This document shows, in pieces, positions 1-57,872 of a stretch of DNA of 64,000 nucleotides. Under the pieces are notes generated by a model. It was not told the origin of the DNA. It worked only from the letters and a program-made list of their open reading frames with translations, and searched no databases. The first letter of the stretch is position 1; each line of letters begins with the position of its first letter. This DNA comes from Eledone cirrhosa (lineage: Eukaryota), in NCBI GenBank assembly GCA_964016885.1, contig OZ024745.1, positions 45,136,001 through 45,200,000 on the forward strand. The letters run 5' to 3'. A program made the translations under genes and the position numbers.

Positions 1-3000
1 AGAGGGGGAGAGTTTGGTGGAGATGATTAGAGTGAGAGGATTGAGAGAGATAGGTATTGAGAGATATAGAGAGGGAGAGAGTTTGGTAGAGATAAATAGA
101 GTGAGAGGATTGAGAGAGACAGGTATTGAGAGATATAGAGAGGGAGAGAGTTTGGTAGAGATGAATAGAGTGAGAGGACTGATAGAGATAGGTATTGAGA
201 TATATAGAGAGGGGGAGAGTTTGGTAGAGATGAATAGAGTGAGAGGATCGATAGGGATAGGTATTGAGAGATATAGAGAGGGGGAGAGTTTGGTAGAGAT
301 GAATAGAGTGAGAGGATCGAGAGAGATAGGTATTGAGAGATATAGAGAGGGGTGAGTTTGGTAGAGATGAATAGAGTGAGAAGACTGATAGAGATAGGTA
401 TTGAGAGATATAGAGAGGGGGAGAGTTTGGTAGAGATGAATAGAGTGAGAGGATTGAGAGAGATAGGTATTGAGAGATATAGAGAGGGGGAGAGTTTGGT
501 AGAGATGAATAGAGTGAGAGGACTGATAGAGATACGTATTGAGAGATATAGAGAGATAGGTATTGAGAGATATAGAGAGGGGGAGAGTTTGGTGGAGATG
601 AATAGAGTGAGAGGATTGAGAGAGATAGGTATTGATAGATATAGAGAGGTGGAGAGTTTGGTAGAGATGAATAGAGTGAGAGGATTGAGAGAGATAGGTA
701 TTGAAAGATATAGAGAGGGGGAGAGTTTGGTAGAGATGAATAGAGTGAGAGGACTGATAGAGATAGGTATTGAGAGATGTATAGAGGGGGAGAGTTTGGT
801 AGAGATGAATAGAGTGAGAGGATCGATAGGGATAGGTATTGAGAGATGTATAGAGGGGGAGAGTTTGGTAGAGATGAATAGAGTGAGAGGATCGATAGGG
901 ATAGGTATTGAGAGATATAGAGAGGGGGAGAGTTTGGTAGAGATGAAGAGAGTGAGAGGATTAAGAGAGATAGGTATTGAGAGATATAGAGAGGGGGAGA
1001 GTTTGGTAGAGATGAATAGAGTGAGAGGATCGATAGGGATAGGTATTGAGAGATATAGAGAGGGGGAGAGTTTGGTAGAGATGAATAGAGTGAGAGGACT
1101 GATAGAGATAGGTATTGAGAGATATAGAGAGGGAGAGAGTTTGGTAGAGATGAATAGAGTGAGAGGATCGATAGGGATAGGTATTGAGAGATATAGAGAG
1201 GGGGAGAGTTTGGTAGAGATGAATAGAGTGAGAGGATTGAGAGAGATAGGTATTGAGAGATATAGAGAGGGGGAGAGTTTGGTAGAGATGAATAGAGTGA
1301 GAGGACTGATAGAGATAGGTATTGAGAGATATAGAGAGGGGGAGAGTTTGGTAGAGATGAATAGAGTGAGAGGATCGATAGGGATAGGTATTGAGAGATA
1401 TAGAGAGGGGGCGAGTTTGGTAGAGATGAATAGAGTGAGAGGATTGAGAGAGATAGGTATTGAGAGATATAGAGAGGGGGAGAGTTTGGTAGAGATGAAT
1501 AGAGTGAGAGGACTGATAGAGATAGGTATTGAGAGATATAGAGAGGGGGAGAGTTTGATAGAGATGAATAGAGTGAGAGGATCGATAGGGATAGGTATTG
1601 AGAGATATAGAGAGGGGGAGAGTTTGATAGAGATGAATAGCGTGAGAGGATTGAGAGAGATAGGTATTGAGAGATATAGAGAGGGGGAGAGTTTGGTAGA
1701 GATGAATAGAGTGAGAGGATTGAGAGAGATAGGTATTGAGAGATATAGAGAGGGGGAGAGTTTGGTAGAGATGAATAGAGTGAGAGGATTGAGAGAGATA
1801 GGTATTGAGAGATATAGAGAGGGGGAGAGTTTGGTAGAGATGAATAGAGTGAGAAGACTGATAGAGATAGGTATTGAGAGATATAGAGAGGGGGAGAGTT
1901 TGGTAGAGATGAATAGAGTGAGAGGACTGATAGAGATCGGTAATGAGAGATATAGAGAGGGGGAGAGTTTGGTAGAGATGAATAGAGTGAGAGGACTGAT
2001 AGAGATAGGTATTGTGAGATATAGAGAGGGGGAGAGTTTGGTGGAGATGATTAGAGTGAGAGGATTGAGAGAGATAGGTATTGAGAGATATAGAGAGGGA
2101 GAGAGTTTGGTAGAGATAAATAGAGTGAGAGGATTGAGAGAGACAGGTATTGAGAGATATAGAGAGGGAGAGAGTTTGGTAGAGATGAATAGAGTGAGAG
2201 GACTGATAGAGATAGGTATTGAGATATATAGAGAGGGGGAGAGTTTGGTAGAGATGAATAGAGTGAGAGGATCGATAGGGATAGGTATTGAGAGATATAG
2301 AGAGGGGGAGAGTTTGGTAGAGATGAATAGAGTGAGAGGATCGAGAGAGATAGGTATTGAGAGATATAGAGAGGGGTGAGTTTGGTAGAGATGAATAGAG
2401 TGAGAAGACTGATAGAGATAGGTATTGAGAGATATAGAGAGGGGGAGAGTTTGGTAGAGATGAATAGAGTGAGAGGACTGATAGAGATAGGTATTGAGAG
2501 ATATAGAGAGGGGGAGAGTTTGGTAGAGATGAATAGAGTGAGAAGACTGATAGAGATAGGTATTGAGAGATATAGAGAGGGGGAGAGTTTGGTAGAGATG
2601 AATAGAGTGAGAGGATCGATAGGGATAGGTATTGAGAGATATAGAGAGGGGGAGAGTTTGGTAGAGATAAATAGAGTGAGAGGATCGATAGGGATAGGTA
2701 TTGAGAGATATAGAGAGGGGGAGAGTTTGGTAGAGATGAATAGAGTGAGAGGATTGAGAGATATAGAGAGGGGGAGAGTTTGGTAGAGATGAATAGAGTG
2801 AGAGGATTGAGAGAGATAGGTATTGAGAGATATAGAGAGGGGGAGAGTTTGGTAGAGATGAATAGAGTGAGAAGACTGATAGAGATAGGTATTGAGAGAT
2901 ATAGAGAGGGGGGAGAGTTTGGTAGAGATGAATAGAGTGAGAGGATCGATAGGGATAGGTATTGAGAGATATAGAGAGGGGGAGAGTTTGGTAGAGATGA

Positions 3001-6000
3001 ATAGAGTGAGAGGATTGAGAGAGATAGGTATTGAGAGATATAGAGAGGGGGAGAGTTTGGTAGAGATGAATAGAGTGAGAAGACTGATAGAGATAGGTAT
3101 TGAGAGATATAGAGAGGGGGAGAGTTTGGTAGAGATGAATAGAGTGAGAGGATCGATAGGGATAGGTATTGAGAGATATAGAGAGGGGGAGAGTTTGGTA
3201 GAGATGAATAGAGTGAGAGGATTGAGAGAGATAGGTATTGAGAGATATAGAGAGGGGGAGAGTTTGGTAGAGATGAATAGAGTGAGAGGATTGAGAGAGA
3301 TAGGTATTGAGAGATATAGAGAGGGGAGAGTTTGGTAGAGATGAATAGAGTGAGAGGACTGATAGAGATAGGTATTGAGAGATATAGAGAGGGAGAGAGT
3401 TTGGTACAGATGAATAGAGTGAGAGGATTGAGAGAGATAGGTATTGAGAGATATAGAGAGGGGGAGAGTTTGGTAGAGATAAATAGAGTGAGAGGATCGA
3501 TAGGGATTGGTATTGAGAGATATAGAGAGGGGGAGAGTTTGGTAGAGATGAATAGAGTGAGAGGATTGAGAGAGATAGGTATTGAGAGATATAGAGAGGG
3601 GGAGAGTTTGGTAGAGATGAATAGAGTGAGAGGACTGATAGAGATAGGTATTGTGAGATATAGAGAGGGGGAGAGTTTGGTGGAGATGATTAGAGTGAGA
3701 GGATTGAGAGAGATAGGTATTGAGAGATATAGAGAGGGAGAGAGTTTGGTAGAGATAAATAGAGTGAGAGGATTGAGAGAGACAGGTATTGAGAGATATA
3801 GAGAGGGAGAGAGTTTGGTAGAGATGAATAGAGTGAGAGGACTGATAGAGATAGGTATTGAGATATATAGAGAGGGGGAGAGTTTGGTAGAGATGAATAG
3901 AGTGAGAGGATCGATAGGGATAGGTATTGAGAGATATAGAGAGGGGGAGAGTTTGGTAGAGATGAATAGAGTGAGAGGATCGAGAGAGATAGGTATTGAG
4001 AGATATAGAGAGGGGTGAGTTTGGTAGAGATGAATAGAGTGAGAAGACTGATAGAGATAGGTATTGAGAGATATAGAGAGGGGGAGAGTTTGGTAGAGAT
4101 GAATAGAGTGAGAGGACTGATAGAGATAGGTATTGAGAGATATAGAGAGGGGGAGATTTTGGTAGAGATGAATAGAGTGAGAAGACTGATAGAGATAGGT
4201 ATTGAGAGATATAGAGAGGGGGAGAGTTTGGTAGAGATGAATAGAGTGAGAGGATCGATAGGGATAGGTATTGAGAGATATAGAGAGGGGGAGAGTTTGG
4301 TAGAGATAAATAGAGTGAGAGGATCGATAGGGATAGGTATTGAGAGATATAGAGAGGGGGAGAGTTTGGTAGAGATGAATAGAGTGAGAGGATTGAGAGA
4401 TATAGAGAGGGGGAGAGTTTGGTAGAGATGAATAGAGTGAGAGGATTGAGAGAGATAGGTATTGAGAGATATAGAGAGGGGGAGAGTTTGGTAGAGATGA
4501 ATAGAGTGAGAAGACTGATAGAGATAGGTATTGAGAGATATAGAGAGGGGGGAGAGTTTGGTAGAGATGAATAGAGTGAGAGGATCGATAGGGATAGGTA
4601 TTGAGAGATATAGAGAGGGTGAGAGTTTGGTAGAGATGAATAGAGTGAGAGGATTGAGAGATATAGAGAGGGGGAGAGTTTGGTAGAGATGAATAGAGTG
4701 AGAGGATTGAGAGAGATAGGTATTGAGAGATATAGAGAGGGGGAGAGTTTGGTAGAGATGAATAGAGTGAGAAGACTGATAGAGATAGGTATTGAGAGAT
4801 ATAGAGAGGGGGAGAGTTTGGTAGAGATGAATAGAGTGAGAGGATCGATAGGGATAGGTATTGAGAGATATAGAGAGGGGGAGAGTTTGGTAGAGATGAA
4901 TAGAGTGAGAGGATTGAGAGAGATAGGTATTGAGAGATATAGAGAGGGGGAGAGTTTGGTAGAGATGAATAGAGTGAGAGGATCGATAGGGATAGGTATT
5001 GAGAGATATAGAGAGGGGGAGAGTTTGATAGAGATGAATAGCGTGAGAGGATTGAGAGAGATAGGTATTGAGAGATATAGAGAGGGGGAGAGTTTGGTAG
5101 AGATGAATAGAGTGAGAGGATTGAGAGAGATAGGTATTGAGAGATATAGAGAGGGGGAGAGTTTGGTAGAGATGAATAGAGTGAGAGGATTGAGAGAGAT
5201 AGGTATTGAGAGATATAGAGAGGGGGAGAGTTTGGTAGAGATGAATAGAGTGAGAAGACTGATAGAGATAGGTATTGAGAGATATAGAGAGGGGGAGAGT
5301 TTGGTGGAGATGATTAGAGTGAGAGGATTGAGAGAGATAGGTATTGAGAGATATAGAGAGGGAGAGAGTTTGGTAGAGATAAATAGAGTGAGAGGATTGA
5401 GAGAGACAGGTATTGAGAGATATAGAGAGGGAGAGAGTTTGGTAGAGATGAATAGAGTGAGAGGATTGAGAGAGATAGCTATTGAGAGATATAGAGAGGG
5501 GGAGAGTTTGGTAGAGATGAATAGAGTGAGAGGATTGAGAGAGATAGGTATTGAGAGATATAGAGAGGGGGAGAGTTTGGTAGAGATGAATAGAGTGAGA
5601 GGATTGAGAGAGATAGGTATTGAGAGATATAGAGAGGGGGAGAGTTTGGTAGAGATGAATAGAGTGAGAGGACTGATAGAGATAGGTATTGTGAGATATA
5701 GAGAGGGGGAGAGTTTGGTGGAGATGATTAGAGTGAGAGGATTGAGAGAGATAGGTATTGAGAGATATAGAGAGGGAGAGAGTTTGGTAGAGATAAATAG
5801 AGTGAGAGGATTGAGAGAGACAGGTATTGAGAGATATAGAGAGGGAGAGAGTTTGGTAGAGATGAATAGAGTGAGAGGACTGATAGAGATAGGTATTGAG
5901 ATATATAGAGAGGGGGAGAGTTTGGTAGAGATGAATAGAGTGAGAGGATCGATAGGGATAGGTATTGAGAGATATAGAGAGGGGGAGAGTTTGGTAGAGA

Positions 6001-8905
6001 TGAATAGAGTGAGAGGATCGAGAGAGATAGGTATTGAGAGATATAGAGAGGGGTGAGTTTGGTAGAGATGAATAGAGTGAGAAGACTGATAGAGATAGGT
6101 ATTGAGAGATATAGAGAGGGGGAGAGTTTGGTAGAGATGAATAGAGTGAGAGGACTGATAGAGATAGGTATTGAGAGATATAGAGAGGGGGAGAGTTTGG
6201 TAGAGATGAATAGAGTGAGAAGACTGATAGAGATAGGTATTGAGAGATATAGAGAGGGGGAGAGTTTGGTAGAGTTGAATAGAGTGAGAGGATCGATAGG
6301 GATAGGTATTGAGAGATATAGAGAGGGGGAGAGTTTGGTAGAGATAAATAGAGTGAGAGGATCGATAGGGATAGGTATTGAGAGATATAGAGAGGGGGAG
6401 AGTTTGGTAGAGATGAATAGAGTGAGAGGATTGAGAGATATAGAGAGGGGGAGAGTTTGGTAGAGATGAATAGAGTGAGAGGATTGAGAGAGATAGGTAT
6501 TGAGAGATATAGAGAGGGGGAGAGTTTGGTAGAGATGAATAGAGTGAGAAGACTGATAGAGATAGGTATTGAGAGATATAGAGAGGGGGGAGAGTTTGGT
6601 AGAGATGAATAGAGTGAGAGGATCGATAGGGATAGGTATTGAGAGATATAGAGAGGGGGAGAGTTTGGTAGAGATGAATAGAGTGAGAGGATTGAGAGAT
6701 ATAGAGAGGGGGAGAGTTTGGTAGAGATGAATAGAGTGAGAGGATTGAGAGAGATAGGTATTGAGAGATATAGAGAGGGGGAGAGTTTGGTAGAGATGAA
6801 TAGAGTGAGAAGACTGATAGAGATAGGTATTGAGAGATATAGAGAGGGGGAGAGTTTGGTAGAGATGAATAGAGTGAGAGGATCGATAGGGATAGGTATT
6901 GAGAGATATAGAGAGGGGGAGAGTTTGGTAGAGATGAATAGAGTGAGAGGATTGAGAGAGATAGGTATTGAGAGATATAGAGAGGGGGAGAGTTTGGTAG
7001 AGATGAATAGAGTGAGAGGATTGAGAGAGATAGGTATTGAGAGATATAGAGAGGGGAGAGTTTGGTAGAGATGAATAGAGTGAGAGGACTGATAGAGATA
7101 GGTATTGAGATATATAGAGAGGGAGAGAGTTTGGTAGAGATGAATAGAGTGAGAGGATTGAGAGAGATAGGTATTGAGAGATATCGAGAGGGGGAGAGTT
7201 TGGTAGAGATGAATAGAGTGAGAGGATCGATAGGGATAGGTATTGAGAGATATAGAGAGGGGGAGAGTTTGGTAGAGATGAATAGAGTGAGAGGATTGAG
7301 AGAGATAGGTATTGAGAGATATAGAGAGGGGGAGAGTTTGGTAGAGATGAATAGAGTGAGAGGATTGAGAGAGATAGGTATTGAGAGATATAGAGAGGGG
7401 GAGAGTTTGGTAGAGATGAATAGAGTGAGAGGACTGATAGAGATAGGTATTGAGAGATATAGAGAGGGGGAGAGTTTGGTGGAGATGAATAGAGTGAGAG
7501 GATTGAGAGAGATAGGTATTGAGAGATATAGAGAGGTGGAGAGTTTGGTAGAGATGAATAGAGTGAGAGGATTGAGAGAGATAGGTATTGAAAGATATAG
7601 AGAGGGGGAGAGTTTGGTAGAGATGAATAGAGTGAGAGGACTGATAGAGATAGGTATTGAGAGATATAGAGAGGTGTAGAGTTTGGTAGAGATGAATAGA
7701 GTGAGAGGATCGATAGGGATAGGTATTGAGAGATGTATAGAGGGGGAGAGTTTGGTAGAGATGAATAGAGTGAGAGGATCGATAGGGATAGGTATTGAGA
7801 GATATAGAGAGGGGGAGAGTTTGGTAGAGATGAAGAGAGTGAGAGGATTAAGAGAGATAGGTATTGAGAGATATAGAGAGGGGGAGAGTTTGGTAGAGAT
7901 GAATAGAGTGAGAGGATTGAGAGATATAGAGAGGGGGAGAGTTTGGTAGAGATGAATAGAGTGAGAGGACTGATAGAGATAGGTATTGAGAGATATAGAG
8001 AGGGAGAGAGTTTGGTAGAGATGAATAGAGTGAGAGGATCGATAGGGATAGGTATTGAGAGATATAGAGAGGGGGAGAGTTTGGTAGAGATGAATAGAGT
8101 GAGAGGATTGAGAGAGATAGGTATTGAGAGATATAGAGAGGGGGAGAGTTTGGTAGAGATGAATAGAGTGAGAGGATTGAGAGAGATAGGTATTGAGAGA
8201 TATAGAGAGGGGGAGAGTTTGGTAGAGATGAATAGAGTGAGAGGATTGAGAGAGATAGGTATTGAGAGATATAGAGAGGGGGAGAGTTTGGTAGAGATGA
8301 ATAGAGTGAGAAGACTGATAGAGATAGGTATTGAGAGATATAGAGAGGGGGAGAGTTTGGTAGAGATGAATAGAGTGAGAGGACTGATAGAGATCGGTAA
8401 TGAGAGATATAGAGAGGGGGAGAGTTTGGTAGAGATGAATAGAGTGAGGGGATCGATAGAGATAGGTATTGAGAGATATAGAGAGGGGGAGAGTTTGGTA
8501 GAGATGAATAGAGTGAGAGGACTGATAGAGATAGGTATTGTGAGATATAGAGAGGGGGAGAGTTTGGTGGAGATGATTAGAGTGAGAGGATTGAGAGAGA
8601 TAGGTATTGAGAGATATAGAGAGGGAGAGAGTTTGGTAGAGATAAATAGAGTGAGAGGATTGAGAGAGACAGGTATTGAGAGATATAGAGAGGGAGAGAG
8701 TTTGGTAGAGATGAATAGAGTGAGAGGACTGATAGAGATAGGTATTGAGATATATAGAGAGGGGGAGAGTTTGGTAGAGATGAATAGAGTGAGAGGATCG
8801 ATAGGGATAGGTATTGAGAGATATAGAGAGGGGGAGAGTTTGGTAGAGATGAATAGAGTGAGAGGATCGATAGGGATAGGTATTGAGAGATATAGAGAGG
8901 GATAG
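1..8905 (+). repeat. 69-bp tandem satellite (about 130 units, runs off the window start), purine-rich on + strand
   Basis: Unit GAGAGTTTGGTAGAGATGAATAGAGTGAGAGGATTGAGAGAGATAGGTATTGAGAGATATAGAGAGGGG recurs with 69-bp period (e.g. 8, 77); diagnostic variants recur in blocks; one degenerate unit at 8905-8985. Confidence 0.97.
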
Positions 8906-9469
8906 AGTTTGGTGGTAATGAATAGAGGGAGGTGATTGATAGAAATAGGCGGTGTAGTAGATATAGAGAGGCGGGTAGTTTGGTGATGCCCCTCACTAAT
9001 AATTATATTTTCTCCCCAAACTACCAAAACACAATAATTTAGATATGCGCTACAATATATGTACATGTTAAGTTTATCTCATATCGAAGTTTTCTGATCA
9101 TTTTAGAGTACAAAGAGCTAAACTAATCACTACAACTAAATTGTCCCCCCCCCTACCATTTTAATTCAGAAATGCATCCACCGCCCCTGCATACACATAA
9201 TACTCTCTCTCACACACACACACACTGTGGCAGTACACAGCCACACACACACACACACTGTGGCAGTACACAGCCACACATTTATATAAACCTATACAAA
9301 TATGTCACATAGACCTAAAGTATAAGTAAAATGTATCGTTTATTTGTTTGATTGACGAGGAAACACAGCACTCATAATTTACTAAAGCGTTGTTAAGCAC
9401 GGACAATCAATAGTCGGTCCCTTGATGTAAATAGACTTTACTGATATTTTTTCTTTTCTTTTTGTCCCG

Positions 9470-12026: not shown

Positions 12027-12834
12027 CTTTTCTCTCCGGCGAACAACTGATTCTTTTTTTCAAATACCACTTTGGAAGAAGAATCAGGATGGAGAGAGAG
12101 GTGCTGCACTCCAGCAAGTTTTATGAAAGGTGGGTGAAAGTGGCGAGAATGGCCCGAGTGAATGGGCCTTCTCTCTATATCAGCCTGTAGGTTGAGGAAA
12201 AGGAGGAGGAGAGGAAAGGAGTACAAGCTCTTCGTACTCCTGGAGATGAGGGTTGCACATTTTTTTTCGGGGGTATGTGTTACCCATATAAACTGTCTCC
12301 CTCTATTGGGGAAAATCGACTAACTTTTAAATTCCATCTGTGATAACATTTTACACGTTTTTATTGTATGTAAACTTCCCCCTTTGTATTTGTCCCCTTC
12401 TTTTGTGCCCCTGTGGCTAATAAAGAAATATATCTTTTCTCTCCGGCGAACAACTGATTCTTTTTTTCAAATACCACTTTGGAAGAAGAATCAGGATGGA
12501 GAGAGAGGTGCTGCACTCCAGCAAGTTTTATGAAAGGTGGGTGAAAGTGGCGAGAATGGCCCGAGTGAATGGGCCTTCTCTCTATATCAGCCTGTAGGTT
12601 GAGGAAAAGGAGGAGGAGAGGAAAGGAGTACAAACTCTTCGTACTCCTGGAGATGAGGGTTGCACATTTTTTCGGGGGTATGTGTTACCCATATAAACTG
12701 TCTCCCCCTATTGGGGAAAATCGACTAACTTTTTAAATTGCATTTGTGATAACATTTTACACGTTTTTATTGTATGTAAACTTCCCCCTTTGTATTTGTC
12801 CCCTTCTTTTGTGCCCCTGTGGCTAATAAAGAAA
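12027..12834 (+). mobile_element. Two tandem L1/Tx1 3' fragments (12027-12428, 12434-12834)
   Basis: Encode the ORF2 C-terminus ..FFKYHFGRRIRMERE..SLYISL* plus 3' UTR; identical 5' truncation point. Confidence 0.9.
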
Positions 12835-12896
12835 CATATCTATCAATCTATCTTGTGGCAAATAAAGAAATCTATCTATCTATCTATCCATCTGTT

Positions 12897-13698
12897 CCCG
12901 GGACCCATGGATAACTTACAGACGTCCTTGGCCTGGCAGTGCTACCGAGGGGCTCAGCCCGTTCGAGAAAGGCTCTACAGACACGGGCGCCCGGGTAGGG
13001 ACCCCTCGAAAAAGATCTGTACCTGATGCGTGTGCGACGAGGAAAGCGTTGCACACGCATTGGTACACTGCTCGGGCATTGCCGATCTGTGGGGCTATGT
13101 CGAACAACTGCTGTCAAGGGTGGGACCGATCCGGTTGACCACCGAGTCTATTGTAACGATCAAGCCGCCTCCCCTCTTCAAAAACGAAGGAGAGGCGGTG
13201 TTTCTGTGCGTAATAGCCATGGCGAAAGAGGTTGTATGGTGGACGCGTCTGAAAGGACTGAGGTCAGACACCTTTCTCTCGGGCCAACAACTGGTTCGTT
13301 TCTTCCGATATCATTTCGGAAGAAGGATCAGGATGGAGAGAGAGGTGCTGCACCCCAGCCGTTTTTATGAAAGATGGGTGAAAGTGGCGAGAATGGCCCG
13401 TGTGAATGGGCCTTCACTCTACATCAGACTGTAGGTGTGGAAGATGAAAGATCAAGGGAGCACCCCCTCTCTGTGCTCCTGAGGAGAAGGGTTGCACACT
13501 TTTTTTCGGGGGTGTGTGCGACCCCCCAAGGCGCCTCCTCCCTATTGAGGATTTTGTTATTAAATTTATTTTTGTTATATTTTATTTTATTTTTATATCT
13601 TGTTATTGCCTCCTCCTTATTGAGGACGCCTTTTTATGTAAACTTCCCCCATTGTACTTGTCCCACTTTTTGATGCCCTGGTGGCAAATAAAAAGAAA
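12897..13698 (+). mobile_element. L1/Tx1-clade LINE 3' fragment, second subfamily (zf-RVT region)
   Basis: WQCYRGA..CT*C..ESVAHALVHC zinc-knuckle-like region; paralogous to 16509-17609; flanked by (TATC)n. Confidence 0.9.
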
Positions 13699-16272: not shown

Positions 16273-17575
16273 TTTCTTTATTAGCCACAGGGGCACAAAA
16301 GAAGGGGACAAATACAAAGGGGGAAGTTTACATACAATAAAAACGTGTAAAATGTTATCACAGATGGAATTTAAAAGTTAGTCGATTTTCCCCAATAGAG
16401 GGAGACAGTTTATATGGGTAACACATACCCCCGAAAAAATGTGCAACCCTCATCTCCAGGAGTACGAAGAGCTTGTACTCCTTTCCTCTCCTCCTCCTTT
16501 TCCTCAATCTACAGGCTGATATAGAGAGAAGGCCCATTCACTCGGGCCATTCTCGCCACTTTCACCCACCTTTCATAAAACTTGCTGCGGTACAGCACCT
16601 CTCTCTCCATCCTGATTCTTCTTCCAAAGTGGTATTTGAAAAAAAGAATCAGTTGTTGGCCGGAGAGAAAGGTGTCTGACCTCAGCCCTTTCAACCTTGT
16701 CCACCATACAACCTCTTTCGCCATAGCTATCACACAAAGGAAAACCGCCTCTCCTTCGTTTTTGAAGGAGGGTGGCGGTTTGATCATGACAATGGATTCG
16801 GTGGTCAACTGGATTGGTCCCACCCGCGACAATAGTCGTTCTACATATCCCCACAGGTCAGTGACGCCCGGGCAGTGTATGAATGCGTGCGCGACGGTTT
16901 CTTCGTCTCGCACGCACCTCGGACAGATCTTTTTTGCAGGGTCCCTGCCCGGGCGCCCATGTCTGTAGAGCTTGTCTCGAACTGGTAGAGCTCCTCGGTA
17001 GCACTGCCAGGCCAGGGACTTTTGGAAGTTGTCCATCGGTCCCGGGCGGAAGGTCCTACCGAACAGACTGGCCAGTTCATCTTCCTCCACGCCTAGAGTT
17101 TCACCGAGCGCGTCGTCGCACTTGCTGCGGACCAACCCTCTATAGAATGACGAAGTGGAGTCTCCACTGATCGCCGGGTCCGCCTGCCAGAGGGCTGTGA
17201 GCGCCTGAGCACATTCGATGTGCCAGTCGCCCATTTTCCTCGGTCTCTGCTTGACCCAGGACTGCAGCTCGGTCAGTGAGACGAGTCGTGGGAAGGCTCG
17301 CCTCACGAACGGGGCCCACACCGGTTGTCCGGTGAGGAATACGTAGAGATGCCGCAGCCTGAGCGCGTGTTTGCGCATCGTCAACCACGGCATCCCCAGC
17401 CCTCCGTTAGAAGGGTGTTGGCAGCAGATGGATCTTCTTACCAAAGGAGCCCGCCTCTTCCAAAGGAATCGGAAGAGGGCGCGCTCCATTTTGGCGAGCG
17501 TTTTGGCTGGACAAGGCACGACGGTCAAGCGGTAGTAGATGGCGGACGCTATAAAAGTGTTCGCCACCTCCGCTC
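16273..17575 (-). mobile_element. 5'-truncated L1/Tx1-clade LINE (open ORF2 C-terminal ~355 aa + 3' UTR)
   Basis: FRFLW...GGLGMP and CPRC..ETVAHAFIHCP motifs typical of L1/Tx1 ORF2; GATA repeats at both junctions. Confidence 0.93.
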
Positions 17576-17961
17576 GATAGATAGAGAGAAAGGGTTTACA
17601 TGTATACAAAAGAATGGTATGTTTCTGTATGCATGTAAAAAGTAGATTATCGTTTTAGTAATACGACGTTTGCGAGTTAATTAGAGCTGTGAAAGAATGC
17701 CAGTGTTCTTGGGAAAATATTCAACGAAGCATGTTTAAAAGCTCTAAAAGCAGTATCAGTCCCAACTCTTCAGTTGCTATATTACCCGTAACGGAACGAC
17801 ACAAATAACTAATATTCTGCATACCTATAAGTAGTCGAAATTAGAAGACCTGTTTTCGGATTCCTACAGCAGAGAAAGCAATATGCTCCGAGGTTGTACC
17901 AGATGGTATATTTCAACCGCAAGGCTGAATTCATTTTTATTACGCGCACGCATGTGAATTT

Positions 17962-22782: not shown

Positions 22783-22865
<83 letters not shown>

Positions 22866-22997
22866 ATACTTTGGGAGGGTCATGTTGCCAATAAGAAACA
22901 CACGCACAAGTTGCATTCACTTCAATTTATTATACATTAAATTTATAAATTTCCGGTTGGTTGGTTGGTTCCACAACCAGACGATTGTTCATATATT

Positions 22998-23040
22998 GTC
23001 AAAGTTCTTTCGTCACACATTCTGTGACCTCTTCAGTGAC
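22998..23040 (-). ncRNA. Minimal type I hammerhead ribozyme in the inverted pLTR
   Basis: GUCA-CUGAAGA-G-GUCACA/UGUGAC-GAAA-G(AA)C-UU-UGAC. Confidence 0.75.
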
Positions 23041-24854
23041 TGGGGATTCTTTTCTTTGTTTTTGTGCCTCTCCTTTGTTCTGTCCTACGCCATCTTGTTT
23101 TTGTGTGTGTTGTGTGCTTAGTTTGAGCATGTGTTACATCCGGGTGTCTGTGTGTGTGATTATATTTGTTTATTTATTCTTATATTTATTCTTATATTTG
23201 TTTATAATTCTTAAATTTATAAATATAATTTATAATAAATTGAAGTGAAAGCAACTGGTGCGTGTGTTTCTTATTGGGAACATGACCCTCCCAAAGCATA
23301 ACAATATCGGTTTCAACACACGTTTTCAGATAAAGAATCTTGCTAAACAAATTCAGAAATGAAATATCGTAAGCCTTAACCAGGCTAACAAGATACTGAA
23401 AACCACCATGTTCTGTTGTCTACGAAAAACAATAACATCTCGATAACTACACTTCATAAAAGAATGTGCCTCGTCCCGAGTTTACACCAACACCATCAAC
23501 ACCGATGTAAGAAGATTACAACTTACCAAAAAGCAAGCAGATAGGCTAAAACGAACACTAATTCTAAACATAAAAAAGAGGGTTTACAGAGAATTAAGTC
23601 ATCAAGAAAAACATAAGCGTAACCTAATACAAGAAATAACTAAGATCACCACACCAAGAGAAAAATTAATATTTATAAACCTTATATGTCTTGAAGAAAA
23701 GTACATCGTTCAAGAATGTGACAAGCACTTTAACAAGAAACTAAGGTGGCTCAAACAGATGAAACTAGATCAAGAAACTTTAGAGAATATCGATAGATTT
23801 CATGACAAGATTGACGGGATAAACATGGCCGACATCTCATTAACAGATGAATTCAACAACAACAACACAAATATATACGGCAACACTACAGTTGACTCTG
23901 ATGAATATCGATATTACAGCTACCACCTAAATATGCCACATATAATAAGGTAAATATGATATAAAATGCTTGTCAGAAATAGAAAAATCATTTACGAAAT
24001 TACGTTGGAGCCTCAAAAACAAAAACAAAAACAAAAGTAACAATAATAACAACATACGCACACACACACATACAACACACATCCTAACAACAACAGACAC
24101 ACAGACGCAAACAACGATAACAACAACACACACATCAACAATAATAACATACTCAGAAACAACAACAGACACGCAGACACAAACAATAATAACAACACAC
24201 ACAACAATAATAACATACACGGAGACAACAACAACAACACACATCAACAACAGCACACATCAACAACAACAACAACACACACACATTCTATGCTTCTCAC
24301 CACCACAATCTTAACAAACACACAGACACAGAAAACAGGTAATGACGTAAGGGAAGGGAATGTGATTGAAAGGAGAAGGGAGACTATCGATACTGACTGA
24401 GAAAATAACCAGGACGAACACACAGACACACAAAATAGAGTAGATAATAACAATGAGCCAGATGAAAGAGACAGGAGTAATAATGAGAGACATAGAAACA
24501 ACCATGAGGCTGTTGGTGGAAATAGAAATAGAAACAACACAACTAACAATAACAATAGCAATAGTACACATAAAGCAGCAGCCTGGAACTCTACTTTTTA
24601 TAATCCTTCCGATATGTCCTTCGACCTATGAAGACTCCACGCCACGACTTTAGCTTTTAACAATCGCACGCAATTGCCGTCGCAGGTTGATGAACAAACA
24701 GAAGCACAATTTAGTATAGCTAGATCTAAACTTAGAAATATTATAGAACAGTATAGCAAGAAGCAAAATAGAATGGAGGCCCAGCAACTGGGAGAAAAAT
24801 TTGCAAATGGCTGCGTAAGCTCATGCAGCGCGCTCGCGTAATGGAGAGCTTGCA

Positions 24855-26479
24855 TGCTTTCCAACAGACAAGTCTGGCAGAATGTCGGTTGACAGTCTGT
24901 CAAACTACATCCAGGCAATGCAACCCCACATCACTAACACCAGAGAAGTAACACCACAAGAGCATGAAGATAGGGAGAAATCCCTCAATACCCATATGAT
25001 GATGTGGACAAACATAATGCAGCCCAACAAAAGGACTGCCAACAACTTCCAGGCCTGGAACAATGACGTGCCAGCGTTGTATGGGCTTCGAAAAGACCAT
25101 AAAACGAGCAGTGACCCTGTCACAGGACCACCAACACGGCCAGTCTGTGGAGCTAACATTGCTAGTAACTACAGACACTTTCCTACTTCCTCTCCCTGAT
25201 CATACGCCCCATCATTGAAATGTCCCCAGATATATGTGACAGCACGGAGGACCTCAGCAGAATCAGCGAAAGTAACCGATCTAGGGACCTAACAAACTGT
25301 ATAATAGGAAGTATGGATGTTGTGTCCTTGTATCCATCCATTGACGTGGATTTTACTGTGGAGAAATGCGTAGAAATGATCAGTGAGAGCAATGTTGAAT
25401 TCCGTGGGATTGATACCAGTGAGCTGGGACTCCTACTTAAACTTACCTATAGTAATGATTATCTAGATACATATGACCTTAGCAACCTGTGCCCTACAAG
25501 ACCAACAAGAGGCAGACCACCTACCATTACCTTAATGGCCAAGAAAACCCACACAGATAGATGGAACGGGTGGACCAGAGCCATACGGACCCCCGAAAAC
25601 CACGATGAACTAAAGAAAATGATTGCACATGCGGTGGGGACCAGTATAAAATTAACCCTTAAGGAACATATGTTCAAATTTAATGGAAAAACATATGCCC
25701 AAGAGGAGAGAGCAGCCATTGGTGTTAGCATTGCAGGTGACATAGCTAACCTATTCATGGTATGGTGGGACAATAGACTTAAACTTAAACTTAAAGAACA
25801 ATTAGAAGACAGCAACCTCTTAACCTTGATAATGTACTCCCGCTACGTTGATGATATAAACATCGTAGTAAAAACACCCCCACTAGAGAACAGTCAGGAA
25901 TTAGAGAAAAACACCATGGAAGGCATCCAGCAAATAGCTAACTCCATCCACCAGAGTATTAGAGTTACTATAGACTACCCAAGCAAACACCCCAACCATC
26001 GATTACCTGTACTAGACACAGAGCTCGGGTTAGAAACAATTAATAACAAAAAACAAATCCTCCATTCCCATTATGCCAAACCCATGACTTCCAAATATTT
26101 GATCCACCGAAACTCAGCTGTTTCGGACCACACCAAAATCAACATACTGATTGCGGATTTGGTACGGGTGATGAGAAACGTGTCCCGCATGTGCAACCCC
26201 AAAGAACTAGAGAGACACATACAACACTTCATCCACCATATACAGTTCTCTGGTTACAATCAGAGAGATAAAATCAGAATATATAGAGGAGCCAGAACCA
26301 AATGGGAAAAAAGGGTAAATAATGATACAAATGGGACCTGCTCCTTGTATAGGAGCAAATTTTGGAATAGAATAGAAAGAACTAGGAGTAAGGTTAATAG
26401 AATAAACTCATGGTATGATAGCAATAAATACGAGAGTGTAATGTTCCTCAATACAACCCCTAGAGGGGAATTAGCTTAA
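24855..26479 (+). pseudogene. PLE reverse transcriptase (frameshifted)
   Basis: PTDKSGR, LYGLRKDHK, PTRPVC, SMDVVSLYPSI, Q..AAIG..IAG..ANLFM, YSRYVDDI, LPVLD, HYAKP motifs. Confidence 0.93.
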
Positions 26480-26584
26480 AAATTTAGAAGGGCCCTAGAT
26501 AAACATAAACTCAATATTAAGATAGTAGAAAGACCAGGTACCTCCATAAAAACACTTATTACCTATACATACCCTTTTCAAAGA

Positions 26585-26973
26585 CCTCCCTGTATAGATA
26601 AGAAAGTATAATCTGTAAACTAAGCCCCCATATTAACTGTAAAACTAGAAATGTAGTATATAGCATAAGATGTACTGAAGGACAATGTAGAGATAAGAAT
26701 ATAGTGTACATAGGTGAGACAGCTCGTAGTATAGGAGAACTGATAAATGAACACTGGCGAGACCTTCAAGATAGTAAAGAATCATCTGTACTCCACCAAC
26801 ATGCTAAAATAGAATATAAGGGTAAATTAGAGAACATAGAAATAAAAATAGAATCTACACACAGAAAAGACGCAATGTTTAGACAAATCACAGAGGCAAT
26901 AAACATAAATGAACTCCAACCAAAATTAAATAGAAAACATGAATGGAATAGCAACATCACAACTTACAATTAA
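26585..26973 (+). pseudogene. PLE Cys-rich linker and GIY-YIG endonuclease
   Basis: NCKTRNVVYSIRC..C...VYIGETARS..E..NEH..SVLHQH..RQITEA..I..LNRKHEW. Confidence 0.9.
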
Positions 26974-27169
26974 GGACAAAATGAAAACACACACACACAT
27001 AGAACAAACAACCAACCAGTAACATGTAAATCAACAAATAAATAAACAAATATAAACACATACAAACACCCGGATGTAACACATGCGCAAACTAAGCACA
27101 CAACACACAAAGACAAGATGGCGTAGGACAGAACCAAGGAGAGGCACACAAACAAAGAAAATAACCCCA

Positions 27170-27212
27170 GTCACTGAAGAGGTCACAGAATGTGTGACGA
27201 AAGAACTTTGAC
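27170..27212 (+). ncRNA. Minimal type I hammerhead ribozyme in the 3' pLTR
   Basis: Stem I GTCA/TGAC, core CTGAAGA, stem II GTCACA/TGTGAC, GAAA, 2-bp stem III, CUU site. Confidence 0.8.
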
Positions 27213-27431
27213 AATATATGAACAATCGTCTGGTTGTGGAACCAACCAACCAACCGGAAATTTATAAATTTAATTTATAATAAATTGAAGTGAAAGCAAC
27301 TGGTGCGTGTGTTTCTTTTTGGCAACATGACCCTCCCAAAGCATAACAATATCGGTTTCAACACACGTTTTCAGATAAAGAATCTTGCTAAACAAATTCA
27401 TAAACGAAATATATATATATATATATATATA

Positions 27432-34844: not shown

Positions 34845-35177
34845 ATCATTTCATTTTACGTCCGCTTTTCCCTGCTTGCAAGGGTGGGACGGGAACTGAT
34901 TCTGGCTTGATTTCTACAGCTGGATGCCCTTCCTAACACCAACCTCATTTACAGTGAGTGCTGGGTGCTTTTTAGCCGTGGCACCTCCACGACCACTTTG
35001 CAGTGGAATGATAGGGACCCCAGTCCCTATCATCTCATTTCTACAGCTGAGTAAACTGGAGCAATGTGAAATAAAGTGTCTTGCTCAAGGAAACAACACA
35101 TCACCCAGTCTGAGAATTGAACTCACAACCTTTCGATTGCAAGCCCAATGCTCTAACCACTAAGCCATGTGCCTCCA
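34845..35177 (-). mobile_element. tRNA-headed SINE
   Basis: Reverse of GGAGGCACATGGCTTAGTGGTTAGAGCATT...GTGAGTTCAATTC...TCCTTGAGCAAGACACTT. Confidence 0.75.
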
Positions 35178-36510: not shown

Positions 36511-37172
36511 TATCCCATTGCAGAAACTAATTAGTTGGAGTGAAAATTTAAGTAAGAAAAAAATTTTTTTTAAAATTTTTTTTAAAAAAATATTTTCTTA
36601 TTTTACGTCCTTTATATTATTGTTCTGCATTCTCCTGCATTGAACCACCTAGGTACTATGACATAACCTGTGTATTTGCTGGCATGGGCGTGCATCTGTG
36701 CGCTTATGTTAGTTGATATATTAAATTATCTATATTTATCTCCAAATCACTGATTTGTCGAGCAAACTTGTCAAAACCACTTCTAAAAAAATTTTTTTTG
36801 GGGTGTTAGTAGGCGTCAGTCATCTTACCATCCCATTCCTTCTAACTAGCCTCTGTGTCACGTGATTGATTCTTTAGAATCGGCCATTTGACTTGAAGCA
36901 GTGAGAATTTCGGTACATAGAATTCAGTCCTCGCAAGCTGTTCGATCTACCGAATTATTATTATTTTTATATGAGCCGCCAGTGTCCGCGCATTGCCTGG
37001 AGACTTAACTGAGAATAGACTTCCTGATGACGCAATGAATTCTCGACAGTTGGATTACATAACTGTCTTTATCCCATTGCAGAAACTAATTAGTTGGAGT
37101 GAAAATTTAAGTAAGAAAAAAATTTTTTTTAAAATTTTTTTTAAAAAAATATTTTCTTATTTTACGTCCTTT
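36511..37172 (+). mobile_element. Retrozyme-like non-coding element, 559-bp unit + ~100-bp terminal direct repeat, in (TA)n
   Basis: 36511-36613 repeated at 37070-37172; homologous to 51013-51707; contains HHR. Confidence 0.8.
37019..37100 (+). ncRNA. Type I hammerhead ribozyme
   Basis: Stem I ACTTC/GGAGT, CTGATGA, stem II GCAATG/CATTGC, GAAA, palindromic stem III CTAATTAG, GUU site. Confidence 0.8.
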
Positions 37173-41241: not shown

Positions 41242-42647
41242 TGTGGTAGAAAGCAAAACAATGGGAAAAGGTCAAAAATGAATGTTACCTTAGTAATTTA
41301 TTATCCCCAATATTTCGGATTTACCATCCATTATGAAGTGAAGTTTCGTTGGAGAAAATCTCGGTGAAATCGGAGATTGTCTTTCCTGGCCGGGAATCGA
41401 ACTCTAGACTTTATGATTATGAGCCAAGCACGTCTATCTACTAAGCCAAGCGCCTTCACTCAAAGTTAAATGCTGTAATGTTTTTTTTTAAATCTGGTAT
41501 TATGGCATTTTAGTACAGTGCTTGTATTGTTTTACTGTGCATCGAACGAAGGTTTAAAACCCCACAGAAAATAGTAATATTACTGTAGTTAGTCATCACA
41601 AGAGGGACTAATCACATTTGTTGACTAAACCGTGCCTCAGCTCATTTATTACCGGATGAAAAAAGATGCTGAAAGAAACAAAATAGATCGATAAACTCTG
41701 CAGACTAGCCAAATAACAACAATGAAATGTAATATAAAATAATGCTAGTAAAGAATGTCACCACTACTATTCATTCAACATTAATATGGTCATACCTTAT
41801 CTCAATCCAATCGTGTTGGATACAACCAGTAGGTCTATCAGCAGGTGGTAGCTATTAATCATCAGAGTATCCCACGTTGTAAATGGTTGCTCATGACTAC
41901 ATGAACTTCGACTCATAAAGATATATCGAAATACGCAGAAAGAAAAATACGAGACCATAGGTTGGCACAGACACAGATGAACACGTAAACATGTTCACTC
42001 ATATGTTCACAATTTTACAAGTGATGTTTAAGAAGACGCACAAAAGACAGTATAGTATAAACGTTTCAACACGTGTAGGAAAAACGCACGCAGGAAAGAA
42101 TTTCATGTGGCGCCATAATGAAGAACAAGGATGTTATATTGTGTTCTTGAACAGGTCGTGTAATTCATTTGACGTCCGCTGTATTGAAAGGTTTGTCGCA
42201 GTACTTAGTCTTTAGATAGAACTTATCTTTTATAAATAATGTATCATCTTATCGAGTGGGTTATGTTAATGTCTGGGATTTTCTTCAACAGTTCCATATG
42301 TATGTCACTACTAAGGAAGATCCTTTGGTTAATGTGTAGAATTCATGTCTGGTATCTCACTGTTATCACTTCAAAGGATTAGACATAAAATCTATTTCCA
42401 ATAGAAACAATAGAGGAATGTGTGATCAGACCGTAGAAGCATTAGGATGATTTATAGTTTAGAATACACTAAAAAGTAATTGTAACAATGTATGTAGTTT
42501 AAACGGATATCTTTCGTGATATAAATCTGAGCTTTTCGAATATTAATAATAATATTCGATTCCTTTGCAATTATGCAAACATCCTATTTAAACCATGTAA
42601 GTAGAATGACCCCATCATTCTTGCTCTTGTGTTGGCATATAAACAGA

Positions 42648-42694
42648 ACGGCAGACACTAATGTTTCTGGGTGATTACCCTTCATCAGTACCGT
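42648..42694 (-). ncRNA. Type I hammerhead ribozyme
   Basis: ACGGUA-CUGAUGA-A-GGGU(AAUC)ACCC-A-GAAA-CA(UUAG)UG-UC-UGCCGU; 6-bp stem I, GUC site. Confidence 0.8.
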
Positions 42695-42966
42695 ATACTG
42701 CTTACCTGCCAACTGCCAGAGCTAGTGAAAATATATTTTTTGGAATATTCAGTCACTGAATATTCCAAAAAATATGTAGAGCGATAAAACTATTTGTTAG
42801 TTATTTCATGATATAATTATATATATATAATAATTAACTCCGTTCTTGCACCAACAACAAGTTTCATCATCAAATAAGTTGCATAACGTCGAGTGCTTTT
42901 CTTAATTTTACATCATGATTGGCTATATTGAATGACCAGTTCTATCCAGTGGTTAACCACCAAACT

Positions 42967-50926: not shown

Positions 50927-51012
<86 letters not shown>

Positions 51013-51701
51013 AGAATAGACTCCCTGATGACGCAATGAATTCTCGACAGTTGGATTACGTAACTGTCTTTATCCCATTGCAGAAACTAATTAGTTGCAG
51101 TGAAAATTTTAGTAAGTAAGTTAATTTTTAAAATTTTTTTAAATTTTCTTATTTTACGTCTTTTATATTATTGTTCTGCATCCTCCTGCATTGAACCACC
51201 TAGGTACTATGACATAACCTGTGTATTTGCTAGCATTAGCGTACATCTGTACGCATATGTTAGTTGATATACTAAATTCTCTATATTTATCTCCAAATTA
51301 CTTATTTGTCGAGCAAACCTGCCAAAACCACTACTAATTTATTGGTGTGATAGTAGGCTTCTGTCATCTTACCATCCCACTCCTACCAACTAGCCTCAGT
51401 GTCACGTGATTGATTCTTTAGAATCTGCCATTTGACCAGTGACAGCGAGTTTTTCAGTGCATGGAATCCAGTCCCCGCTAGCTGTTCCATCTACCGAATT
51501 ATTATTATCTTTATATGAGTCCCCAGTGTCCGCGCATTGCCTGGAGACTTAGCTGAGAATAGACTCCCTGATGACGCAATGAATTCTCGACAGTTGGATT
51601 ACGTAACTGTCTTTATCCCATTGCAGAAACTAATTAGTTGGAGTGAAAATTTTAGTAAGTAAGTTAATTTTTTAAATTTTTTAAAATTTTCTTATTTTAC
51701 G

Positions 51702-51707
<6 letters not shown>
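51013..51707 (+). mobile_element. Retrozyme-like non-coding element, 543-bp unit bounded by two HHRs (51020-51101, 51563-51644)
   Basis: 51013-51164 repeated at 51556-51707; stem I ACTCC/GGAGT, CTGATGA, GAAA-CTAATTAG-TT. Confidence 0.85.
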
Positions 51708-51782
<75 letters not shown>

Positions 51783-56323: not shown

Positions 56324-57266
56324 TATGTATGTATGTATGTATGTATGTATACGTACATACATATATGTATACAGAATACCGACGTACAGTAGTATGTATA
56401 TATATATATACATACATGCACACATATATATATGCACGTATCGGTTTACCGAACATTTATTATAATGCTCGGGCTGTTTGTTTGTAAACAAACAAACAGC
56501 CCGAATTACGCCGTACAGTGTTTAGGCAACCACGTGACCTTGAAACTAGTACATGGTTCCTGTGTCAGTGTTGAACAAAAAGGTGACGTGGTTGCCTAAA
56601 CACTGAACGGCGTAATTCGGGCTGTTTGTTAAACAAACCGAGTATTATAATAAATGTTCGGTAAACCGATACGTGCATATATATATGTGTGCATGTATGT
56701 ATATATATACATACTACTGTACGTCTGTATACATATATGTATGTACGTATACATACATACATACTTACATTTAAGTACCGTGCTAAGAGTGAGAAATGAA
56801 ATTTCGTTTCATTCTATTCCATTTATCGTTTTCGGTGTTCCCGGCCGACTGAACTCACTCGATATGCAAATTAGGCTGCTCAGCCGTTAATATGCATAAG
56901 GAAAGTATATACTTTCAGACGTTCAACCATCTGGCAGGAAGGTATACGATGCTGACGATAGCTAATAAGCTTGAAACTAGTACATCGTTCCTGTGTAAGT
57001 GTTGGGCAAAAAGGTGACGTGGTTGCCTAAACACTGTACGGCGTAATTCGGGCTGTTTGTTTGTTTACAAACAAACACACCGAGCATTATAATAAATGTT
57101 CGGTAAACCGATACGTGCATATATATATGTGTGCATGTATGTATATATATACATACTACTGTACGTCTGTATACATATATGTATGTACATATACATACAT
57201 ACATACTTACATTTAAGTAAGTGCCGTACTAAGAGTGAGAAATGAAATTTCGTTTCATTCTATTCC

Positions 57267-57272
<6 letters not shown>
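56322..57272 (+). mobile_element. Retrozyme-like 431-bp unit: 5' inverted segment (56322-56539) + ~1.7 tandem units
   Basis: TTGAAACTAGTACAT with GAAA at 56542 and 56973 (period 431); no ORF; ends in (TA)n. Confidence 0.8.
56946..56988 (+). ncRNA. Minimal type I hammerhead ribozyme
   Basis: ACGATG-CTGACGA-T-AGCT(AATA)AGCT-T-GAAA-CTAG-TA-CATCGT. Confidence 0.85.
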
Positions 57273-57313
<41 letters not shown>

Positions 57314-57436
57314 ATAAAATATGGAGAAAAATACTGCAGGTAGCGCATGGATAACATGTAATAAAATGAGTCCCTCATCAGTGATTTGCCGACGATCATA
57401 GATATTTCATTGCATTAAAAATCACTATATATATAT

Positions 57437-57872
57437 ATAAACGGAAAAAATGAAACGAAATTTTATTTCCCACTCTTAGTACGGCTGTTACTTAAATATA
57501 AGTACGTACACGTACATACATATATGTATACAGACGTACAGTAGTATGTATATATATATACATACATGCACATATATATATATATGTACGTATGGATTCA
57601 CCGAACATTTATTATAATGCTCGGTGTGTTTGTAAACAAACCTCCCGTATTAAGCCGTAGTATCTAGCAATCATCGTTGCTCGTTTGTTCAACACTGACA
57701 AAGGAACGCTGTACTAGTTTCAAGCTTATTAGCTATCGTCAGCAACGTATACCTTCCTGCCAGATTGTTGAACGTAGATACTTACCTTATGCATATTAAC
57801 GGCTGAGTAGCCCAATTTGCATATCGAGTGGGTTAATCGGCCGGGTGCACCGAAAACGATAAACGGAACTAT
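57437..57872 (-). mobile_element. Single circularly permuted 431-family unit with HHR at 57706-57748
   Basis: Begins and ends with TTCCGTTTAT; HHR stem I ACGTTG/CAGCGT. Confidence 0.8.

Follow-up and report, generated by a model that had tools for sequence, protein, structure and literature searches.

A truncated hammerhead retrozyme copy in Eledone cirrhosa whose family carries Penelope-type ends

Described relatives and the family in this genome

Metazoan non-LTR retrozymes, as presented in parts of PMC7229834 and 10.64898/2026.07.22.740005, consist of non-coding units arranged in tandem, and every unit has a type I hammerhead and a short palindromic helix III. Their GC content is below 50%, they reach thousands of copies, the unit is structured and Penelope-like elements co-exist with them. 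The production of circular RNAs by non-LTR retrozymes is knowledge on the class (PMC7229834), and the mode of movement of animal retrozymes is stated as open in the consulted parts of both sources. EN+ Penelope-like elements (Penelope/Poseidon, Neptune and Hydra) show partial tandems, 5′ truncation and an inverted 5′ arm; their pseudo-LTRs have a tail that is optional at one end, an association with (TA)n and a hammerhead bulged before G10.1–C11.1 (PMC8557442, PMC3846280, PMC11167929, in part). This tail measures 30–40 bp in the same layout (PMC8557442, PMC3846280), a layout explained in PMC11167929 by two internal start sites, on both target strands. Penelope-type hammerheads are characterized by the bulged base before G10.1–C11.1, a long helix II and a palindromic helix III (sections of PMC4209133). 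Chlamys MRC1-type elements are non-coding and Penelope-dependent, with pseudo-LTRs and head-to-tail copies; in the parts of PMC8557442 that treat them, most of them have no hammerhead, and their 3′ sequence is also found in autonomous partners.

The window analysed here is a stretch of 64,000 nt of contig OZ024745.1. A genome search with the copy at 51013–51707 returned 1,572 candidates, the best of which were 95–98% identical among the 32 scored. The family is dispersed, with a high copy number and low GC content. It consists of tandem non-coding units of 478–571 nt with consecutive hammerheads, a type I core in each unit and no ORF of 100 aa inside the unit; subfamilies are 72–100% identical. 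By these characters the family is assigned to the animal (non-LTR) retrozymes, a class already known, with variant anatomy, and appears young to old with Penelope-type integration. The retrozyme-like label of the initial annotation is backed by structure, tandem layout and copy number. Since the class is known, the window copy itself is ordinary.

The family shares with metazoan retrozymes the unit architecture, GC content, copy number, structured unit and co-existence with Penelope-like elements listed above, and its unit size falls within the 51–972 bp range of retrozymes (10.64898/2026.07.22.740005, in part). It differs in having a unit longer than the 170–400 nt circles assayed from invertebrates and a Penelope-type hammerhead with a two-helix stem II, an extra A and a GUU triplet (against the parts of PMC7229834 and 10.64898/2026.07.22.740005 consulted). 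Two other identities were rejected: that of an autonomous Penelope-like element, as no RT + GIY-YIG ORF occurs in the units, and that of a plant LTR retrozyme, as the hammerhead is of type I rather than type III and multimers and inversions are present. Plant LTR retrozymes carry their type III hammerhead in LTRs, with PBS, PPT and a 4-bp duplication. No paper on a cephalopod retrozyme, on exclusive pairing counts of the two end sites described below or on Penelope-type stutter turned up in a literature search that had neither Repbase/Dfam nor the majority of subscription journals, and the family may already have another name in a catalogue. The words 'ribozyme' and 'retrozyme' are absent from the main text of PMC13282606, as far as that text was available. 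Contigs from three sequencing runs cover the unit at very high depth only. Three contigs under a second organism label match the unit (window 51022–51605) at 90–99%, so the family may extend to a related species.

Anatomy, conservation and folding of the hammerhead units

The features of the window copy are listed in Table 1. With a direct repeat of 152 bp, the insertion amounts to 1.28 units, its 3′ end lying 68 nt past the second cut. Truncation has set its start 7 nt before stem I. In non-LTR retrozymes target-site duplications, when present, exceed 4 bp; none is readable here in the TA-repeat flanks. The two hammerheads reported earlier at a spacing of 543 nt were recovered, with CUGAUGA at 51025 and 51568 and GAAA at 51083 and 51626, together with the inner stem II hairpin GACAGTT/AACTGTC and a single stem I mismatch in the first hammerhead (G>C at 51098). 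A palindrome given as 8 nt is present and measures 12 nt; the suggestion that it would allow a dimeric fold agrees with predicted folds, in which dimeric hammerheads beat monomeric ones by 6–8 kcal/mol. Two features had been overlooked: the GUU triplet, and an unpaired base on either side of stem II (C and A). The description of one unit 'precisely bracketed' by two hammerheads does not hold: the element is bounded at its 3′ end by a fixed start site of Penelope type and at its 5′ end by a truncation that varies between copies. From the Penelope-type end layout of the family, the window copy is read as a one-armed, 5′-truncated insertion started at site A.

Table 1. Features of the retrozyme copy, its flanks and its sister copy (window coordinates)
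Feature	Position	Strand	Remarks
Retrozyme insertion arm, 695 bp = 1.28 units of 543 nt	51013..51707	+	5′ truncated; 3′ end = start site A
Direct repeat copy 1, 152 bp (pseudo-LTR-like partial unit)	51013..51164	+	98% to 51556-51707
Direct repeat copy 2	51556..51707	+	Terminates at start site A
Type I hammerhead 1	51020..51101	+	Core 51025-51031 and 51083-51086; unpaired C51032, A51082; predicted cut after 51096
Type I hammerhead 2	51563..51644	+	Stem I intact; predicted cut after 51639
12-nt palindrome AACTAATTAGTT forming stem III	51085..51096	+	Second copy 51628-51639; predicted to favour dimeric hammerhead
AU-rich hairpin just upstream of start site A	51112..51157	+	Prediction only; second copy ~51655-51700
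118-nt 'tail', start site A (51164/51165) to start site B (~51282, word CTCT-ATAT)	51165..51282	+	Holds covarying hairpin
Interior strand, possible blocker or ligation splint: pairing expected on either side of the cut junction	51378..51393	+	Prediction
Left flank: (TA)34, then (TG)n	50928..51012		Sequence
Right flank: (TA)36	51708..51779		Junction ambiguous by ~4 nt ATAT microhomology
Sister copy, other subfamily, 559-nt unit, 86%	36511..37172	+	Starts inside hammerhead; one complete hammerhead; same end site A

In the hammerhead, stem I is ACUCC/GGAGU and the core is CUGAUGA plus GAAA. The 6 bp of stem II continue through an internal loop into a hairpin of 7 bp; stem III has 3 bp inside the palindrome. 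Its variant features are the extra A before GAAA and the GUU cut triplet (U17). GUU is a weaker hammerhead cleavage site. The hammerhead carries the Penelope-type traits, the extra A being additional to them. A U–U mismatch at the position of the stem II insert is tolerated in an axolotl hammerhead (PMC7229834, in part); two-sided inserts like those of the family also occur in other hammerheads of this genome, including those of a Neptune-like autonomous family. Downstream of the cut, the word GTAAGT might act as a splice donor, although none of the copies was noticed to be spliced.

The exact hammerhead pattern was matched 8,582 times in the 3.0 Gb genome and its reversed control 0 times; with these counts and covarying stems, the matches are not due to chance. 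Across 15 distinct hammerheads, stem pairing was found in 93.8% of cells against 84.2% after shuffling, a score reached by 0 of 500 shuffles and inflated by the relatedness of the sequences. Two-sided changes occurred in eight of the 21 stem pairs of the same 15, and slid controls dropped to 35–48%. C and A flank a G–C first pair of stem II in 72 of 74 hammerheads, and the flanking C/A is present in 57 of 60 of another set. The broken stem I of the first window hammerhead is a singleton (1/60 distinct hammerheads, 0/74 in the other set), both sets having been partly chosen by a pattern that demands GG. Rfam returned no hammerhead match, neither at the gathering score nor at E ≤ 10.

A nearly invariant hammerhead region with a diverged interior had been claimed from the comparison with the 36511 copy. 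The claim stands for that pair, in which 2 of 84 nt differ in the hammerhead and 43 of 391 in the interior (Fisher P = 0.012). It does not extend to 14 more distant units, where stem II (mean column conservation 0.80) is as variable as the interior (0.87) and only the core, whose near-invariance is partly imposed by the search pattern, is close to constant. The 'excess conservation' is therefore limited to the core and to the young clade.

The circularly folded monomer was more stable than its shuffles (z = −4.0, 60 shuffles); in nine units z ranged from −1.9 to −7.4, with only 12 shuffles each. Covariation in the interior, for a structure derived from the same alignment, was modest (nine two-sided pairs against 7.3 shuffled, 104/500; 30 cells against 13, 0/500). 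In 21 of 22 units, no other interior strand pairs better with the 16-nt cut junction than the counterpart of strand 51378–51393; the pairing lay beyond 95% of shuffles in 14 of 22, the window's own unit not reaching significance (55/200). The unit alignment holds no two-sided substitution for this pairing; in one lineage, matching one-base insertions are present in both paired strands (a single event). In the predicted circle ensemble the interior strand holds the 3′ strand of stem I with a probability of 0.75–0.94, while stem I itself has a probability of 0. In no computed fold is the hammerhead the minimum-energy structure. Self-pairing is predicted to block the ribozyme of the circular form. 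In this it is unlike most animal retrozyme circles, which are described in parts of PMC7229834 as free of such pairing; the block is reported there for plant retrozymes and viroids.

The active dimer fold is predicted at 7.7 kcal/mol above the minimum for the window copy and at 2.6, 3.2 and 6.0 kcal/mol for three intact dimers. Release of a 543-nt monomer had been proposed from the spacing of the hammerheads. The predicted cuts do lie 543 nt apart, but release from the window copy is doubtful, given its active dimer fold and the private mismatch at 51098, which would weaken its first cut site. Since its first hammerhead is a private mutant, the window copy is a poor choice for a T7 cleavage assay; for in vitro work, the family as a whole offers a substrate of 543 nt in which the start sites are defined.

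Arm ends, priming and template

Arm ends were mapped in two sets of insertions. In all, 179 of the 186 mapped arms terminate at either of two fixed positions separated by 118 nt: site A is the unit end (window 51707), 68 nt after the cut, and site B (~51282) is 118 nt further. The first set (67 insertions) gave 108 of 110 arms ending at A or B, scored in bins at unit positions 505–543 and 105–135 (wide because local alignment under-extends in distant subfamilies) and excluding arms shorter than 50 nt; its 41 two-armed insertions were all inverted with the 3′ ends outward (38 A+B, one A+A and two with a disrupted end). The second, independent set comprised 48 insertions taken in order along contig 1; here 71 of 76 arms ended at A or B and all 25 two-armed insertions were tail-out (21 A+B, four with a disrupted end, no A+A and no B+B). 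Over both sets, every one of the 66 two-armed insertions is inverted, and 59 of the 60 with both ends intact use one A and one B, with no case of B+B. The 5′ ends are variable (truncations), and the junctions of two-armed insertions mostly overlap by 1–12 nt.

This pattern is the 'tail' signature of Penelope-like elements and suggests that such an element's enzyme mobilises the units in trans. Such two-site ends with inverted arms are not described for retrozymes in the parts of PMC7229834 and 10.64898/2026.07.22.740005 consulted. The family shares with EN+ Penelope-like elements the features given above and differs from them in the absence of an ORF, a tail of 118 nt rather than 30–40 and arrays of whole units. 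In addition, ATAT follows site A as well as site B, while priming by the anole enzyme needed no homology (PMC11167929, in part). The family thus provides a countable genomic signature (59/60 A+B pairs) that ties a retrozyme to Penelope-type two-site priming.

We estimate at about 0.75 the probability that the stretch at 51013–51707 is a 5′-truncated retrozyme copy placed in a TA-rich site by a Penelope-like reverse transcriptase–endonuclease acting in trans. In the life cycle proposed, tandem copies would be transcribed and cut by the hammerhead, probably slowly and as a dimer; some monomers would be ligated into circles, in which the interior strand may block the ribozyme. The enzyme would nick both target strands, and cDNA would start internally at A on one and at B on the other, pass at least one junction of an RNA that is either circular or a multimer not fully cut, and have its ends joined by microhomology. 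The window copy would be a one-armed outcome started at A. Against this proposal weigh the extra A and the GUU triplet of the hammerhead, its absence from the minimum-energy folds, the finding that only one of nine predicted Xenopus retrozymes cut in vitro (10.64898/2026.07.22.740005, in part) and the equally efficient insertion of uncut RNA by the anole enzyme (PMC11167929).

Two further observations concern the arms. In insertions L114, L118, L129, L142, L144, L148 and L020 several 5′ ends lie slightly upstream of site A, which looks like a stop at the priming point of the partner arm, in the manner of twin priming. At L100–L102 (C1, ~18.96 Mb) two arms from subfamilies 21% apart occupy one site, either as a nested insertion or from two templates.

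Arms cross up to four junctions. In the array at C353, nine segments over both arms carry 0 substitutions, which is compatible with one circle or an identical multimer. Variants shared between units were distributed by rank in three cases, by arm in two and mixed in six, a distribution that cannot separate the two templates, and divergence within insertions is mostly similar to that from the nearest other insertion. Some tandem units arose at the DNA level, neighbouring units of L014 having a 21-bp deletion in common.

In one set, 12 of the 26 arms that reach a second or later junction have their 5′ end within 28 nt 3′ of it, against 1.5 expected. The replicate set gave 4/30 (P = 0.095), or 5/31 counting one end exactly at the cut, and the pooled count is 17/57 against 3.3 expected; in a similarity-chosen set, biased toward passing, 2 of 38 arms stop there. 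As 5′ ends pile up 3′ of the next cut site, linear templates are suggested for at least part of the time. The piled-up ends may be cleavage products, a transcription start or the result of AT-rich joining; the word TTAGT at the cut site also resembles an initiator, so these ends could mark a transcription start. It is conceivable, though rather unlikely, that the same Penelope-dependent element is copied from linear read-through or partly cut multimers, with circles rare or irrelevant and the hammerhead weak or protein-dependent. Besides the pile-up and the TTAGT word, such a template would agree with partner arms that rarely stop at the first junction and with the dominance of uncut RNA as the substrate in vitro (PMC11167929, in part). 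Against it, the pile-up replicates weakly, the end region is AT-rich and prone to microhomology joins, the nine-segment array is free of substitutions, and conservation of a strand that spans the junction is best understood if the RNA is a circle or a monomer ready for ligation.

Terminal B ends differ between subfamilies in the tract that separates element and TA run. Among terminal B ends, 21 of 30 have a (CT)4–17 tract where the subfamily is of the CTCT type, three of 16 where it is of the ATCT type and none of 27 where it is of the CTTT/CCTT type, and the tract occurs at no internal B site; terminal and internal counts were hand-corrected (automatic sorting gave raw values of 20/34 and 0/29). 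The opposite A end, where located, is flanked by TA only, and 6 of the 170 TA-run ends in the window abut CT. In the Neptune-like family, (ATT)n follows its own terminal TTATTAT in two aligned copies. The order CT then AT copies the template word, for which reason the tracts fit enzyme slippage at initiation and look like reverse-transcriptase stutter; later replication slippage beside the long TA run is the rival explanation. We tentatively entertain, at less than even odds, a fuller reading in which the Penelope-like enzyme primes both strands, obligatorily at different RNA sites, with telomerase-like stutter before elongation, on an RNA that is a self-splinted, ribozyme-blocked circle unlike that of most animal retrozymes. 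Through this stutter the element would make part of the surrounding (CT)n/(TA)n arrays rather than only target them, and a telomerase-related enzyme would be linked to repeat addition and to the microsatellite load of the genome.

Candidate partners and other elements of the window

The units could also be solo terminal repeats (pseudo-LTRs) of an autonomous Penelope-like family, amplified as 5′-truncated tandem fragments, which we consider improbable. The hammerhead type, two-site tail and inverted layout are pseudo-LTR traits (PMC4209133, PMC8557442, in part), and the partner searches in a 3-Gb genome score best candidates only. Yet none of 98 pattern-chosen loci has an ORF upstream of the hammerhead, the previous unit or flank being found instead; arrays reach four full units per arm; and the subfamilies (72–100% identity) each keep a closed ~510–570-nt unit and a conserved interior structure. 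A further alternative is a satellite dispersed chiefly through duplication of DNA and recombination helped by microsatellites, in which the hammerhead would be a relic. It would accord with the deletion in L014 and a microsatellite-rich genome but is very improbable and largely refuted by the end statistics: recombination of DNA would not be expected to produce 3′ ends that are fixed and 5′ ends that vary, a strict tail-out A+B pairing or covariation.

A search of 80 RT or GIY-YIG loci (30 + 20 + 30, a small part of the families of the genome) revealed no significant sequence shared with autonomous elements, and a distant RT query with a GIY-YIG family search likewise gave none shared with the retrozyme; a partner of the kind known for Chlamys elements was thus not found in these searches. 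Relaxed short-stem hammerhead patterns gave 35 and 45 matches, nearly all deletion variants of the same family.

The autonomous-type element of the window (22862–27410) was rejected as a partner, its hammerhead being unrelated and no significant similarity being present. It is a near full-length Penelope-like element whose RT and GIY-YIG frames are broken by stops and frameshifts. With an inverted 5′ arm, its own hammerhead near 27166–27220, two ends 60 nt apart and TA flanks, it has the same two-end, inverted, TA-flanked geometry as the retrozyme family. Elements of this type number in the thousands in the genome (27,048 first-look candidates), some with frames of more than 1,200 codons. For a retroelement in the window, the protein of highest similarity comes from Octopus vulgaris (69%).

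In the Neptune-like family (L179–L206), a layout of two ends flanked by TA is combined with a hammerhead-like motif that has inserts on both sides. Words close to its end (CGTCT, TTCATAT and TCTCCA) look like those of the retrozyme, which is short motif resemblance only; as a possible partner the family is a lead only. Its hammerhead-like motif reads UUGAUAA in 13 aligned copies, a U3/A8-type core variant. A TA run lies between its two ends, and (ATT)n follows the outer end in some copies.

Further elements were noted in the window. A second, unrelated hammerhead mini-element at 56420–57860 consists of a ~530-nt partial tandem with an inverted arm; its motifs at 56952 (+) and ~57742 (−) have U–U at the base of stem II, and this motif recurs in at least ten places of the examined loci. 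At 42640–42700 (−) there is a third hammerhead type with A/A flanking stem II, a palindromic stem III and GUC; it lies ~280 nt away from a TA/CT run and may belong to a Penelope-like copy that has been truncated. A 69-bp purine-rich satellite of ~130 copies with a GC skew of 0.95 occupies 1–8984, and inverted LINE fragments with a zf-RVT domain lie at 12436–13434 and 16370–17654. A tRNA-like Rfam match (33 bits) at 35106–35169 (−) is probably a SINE head.
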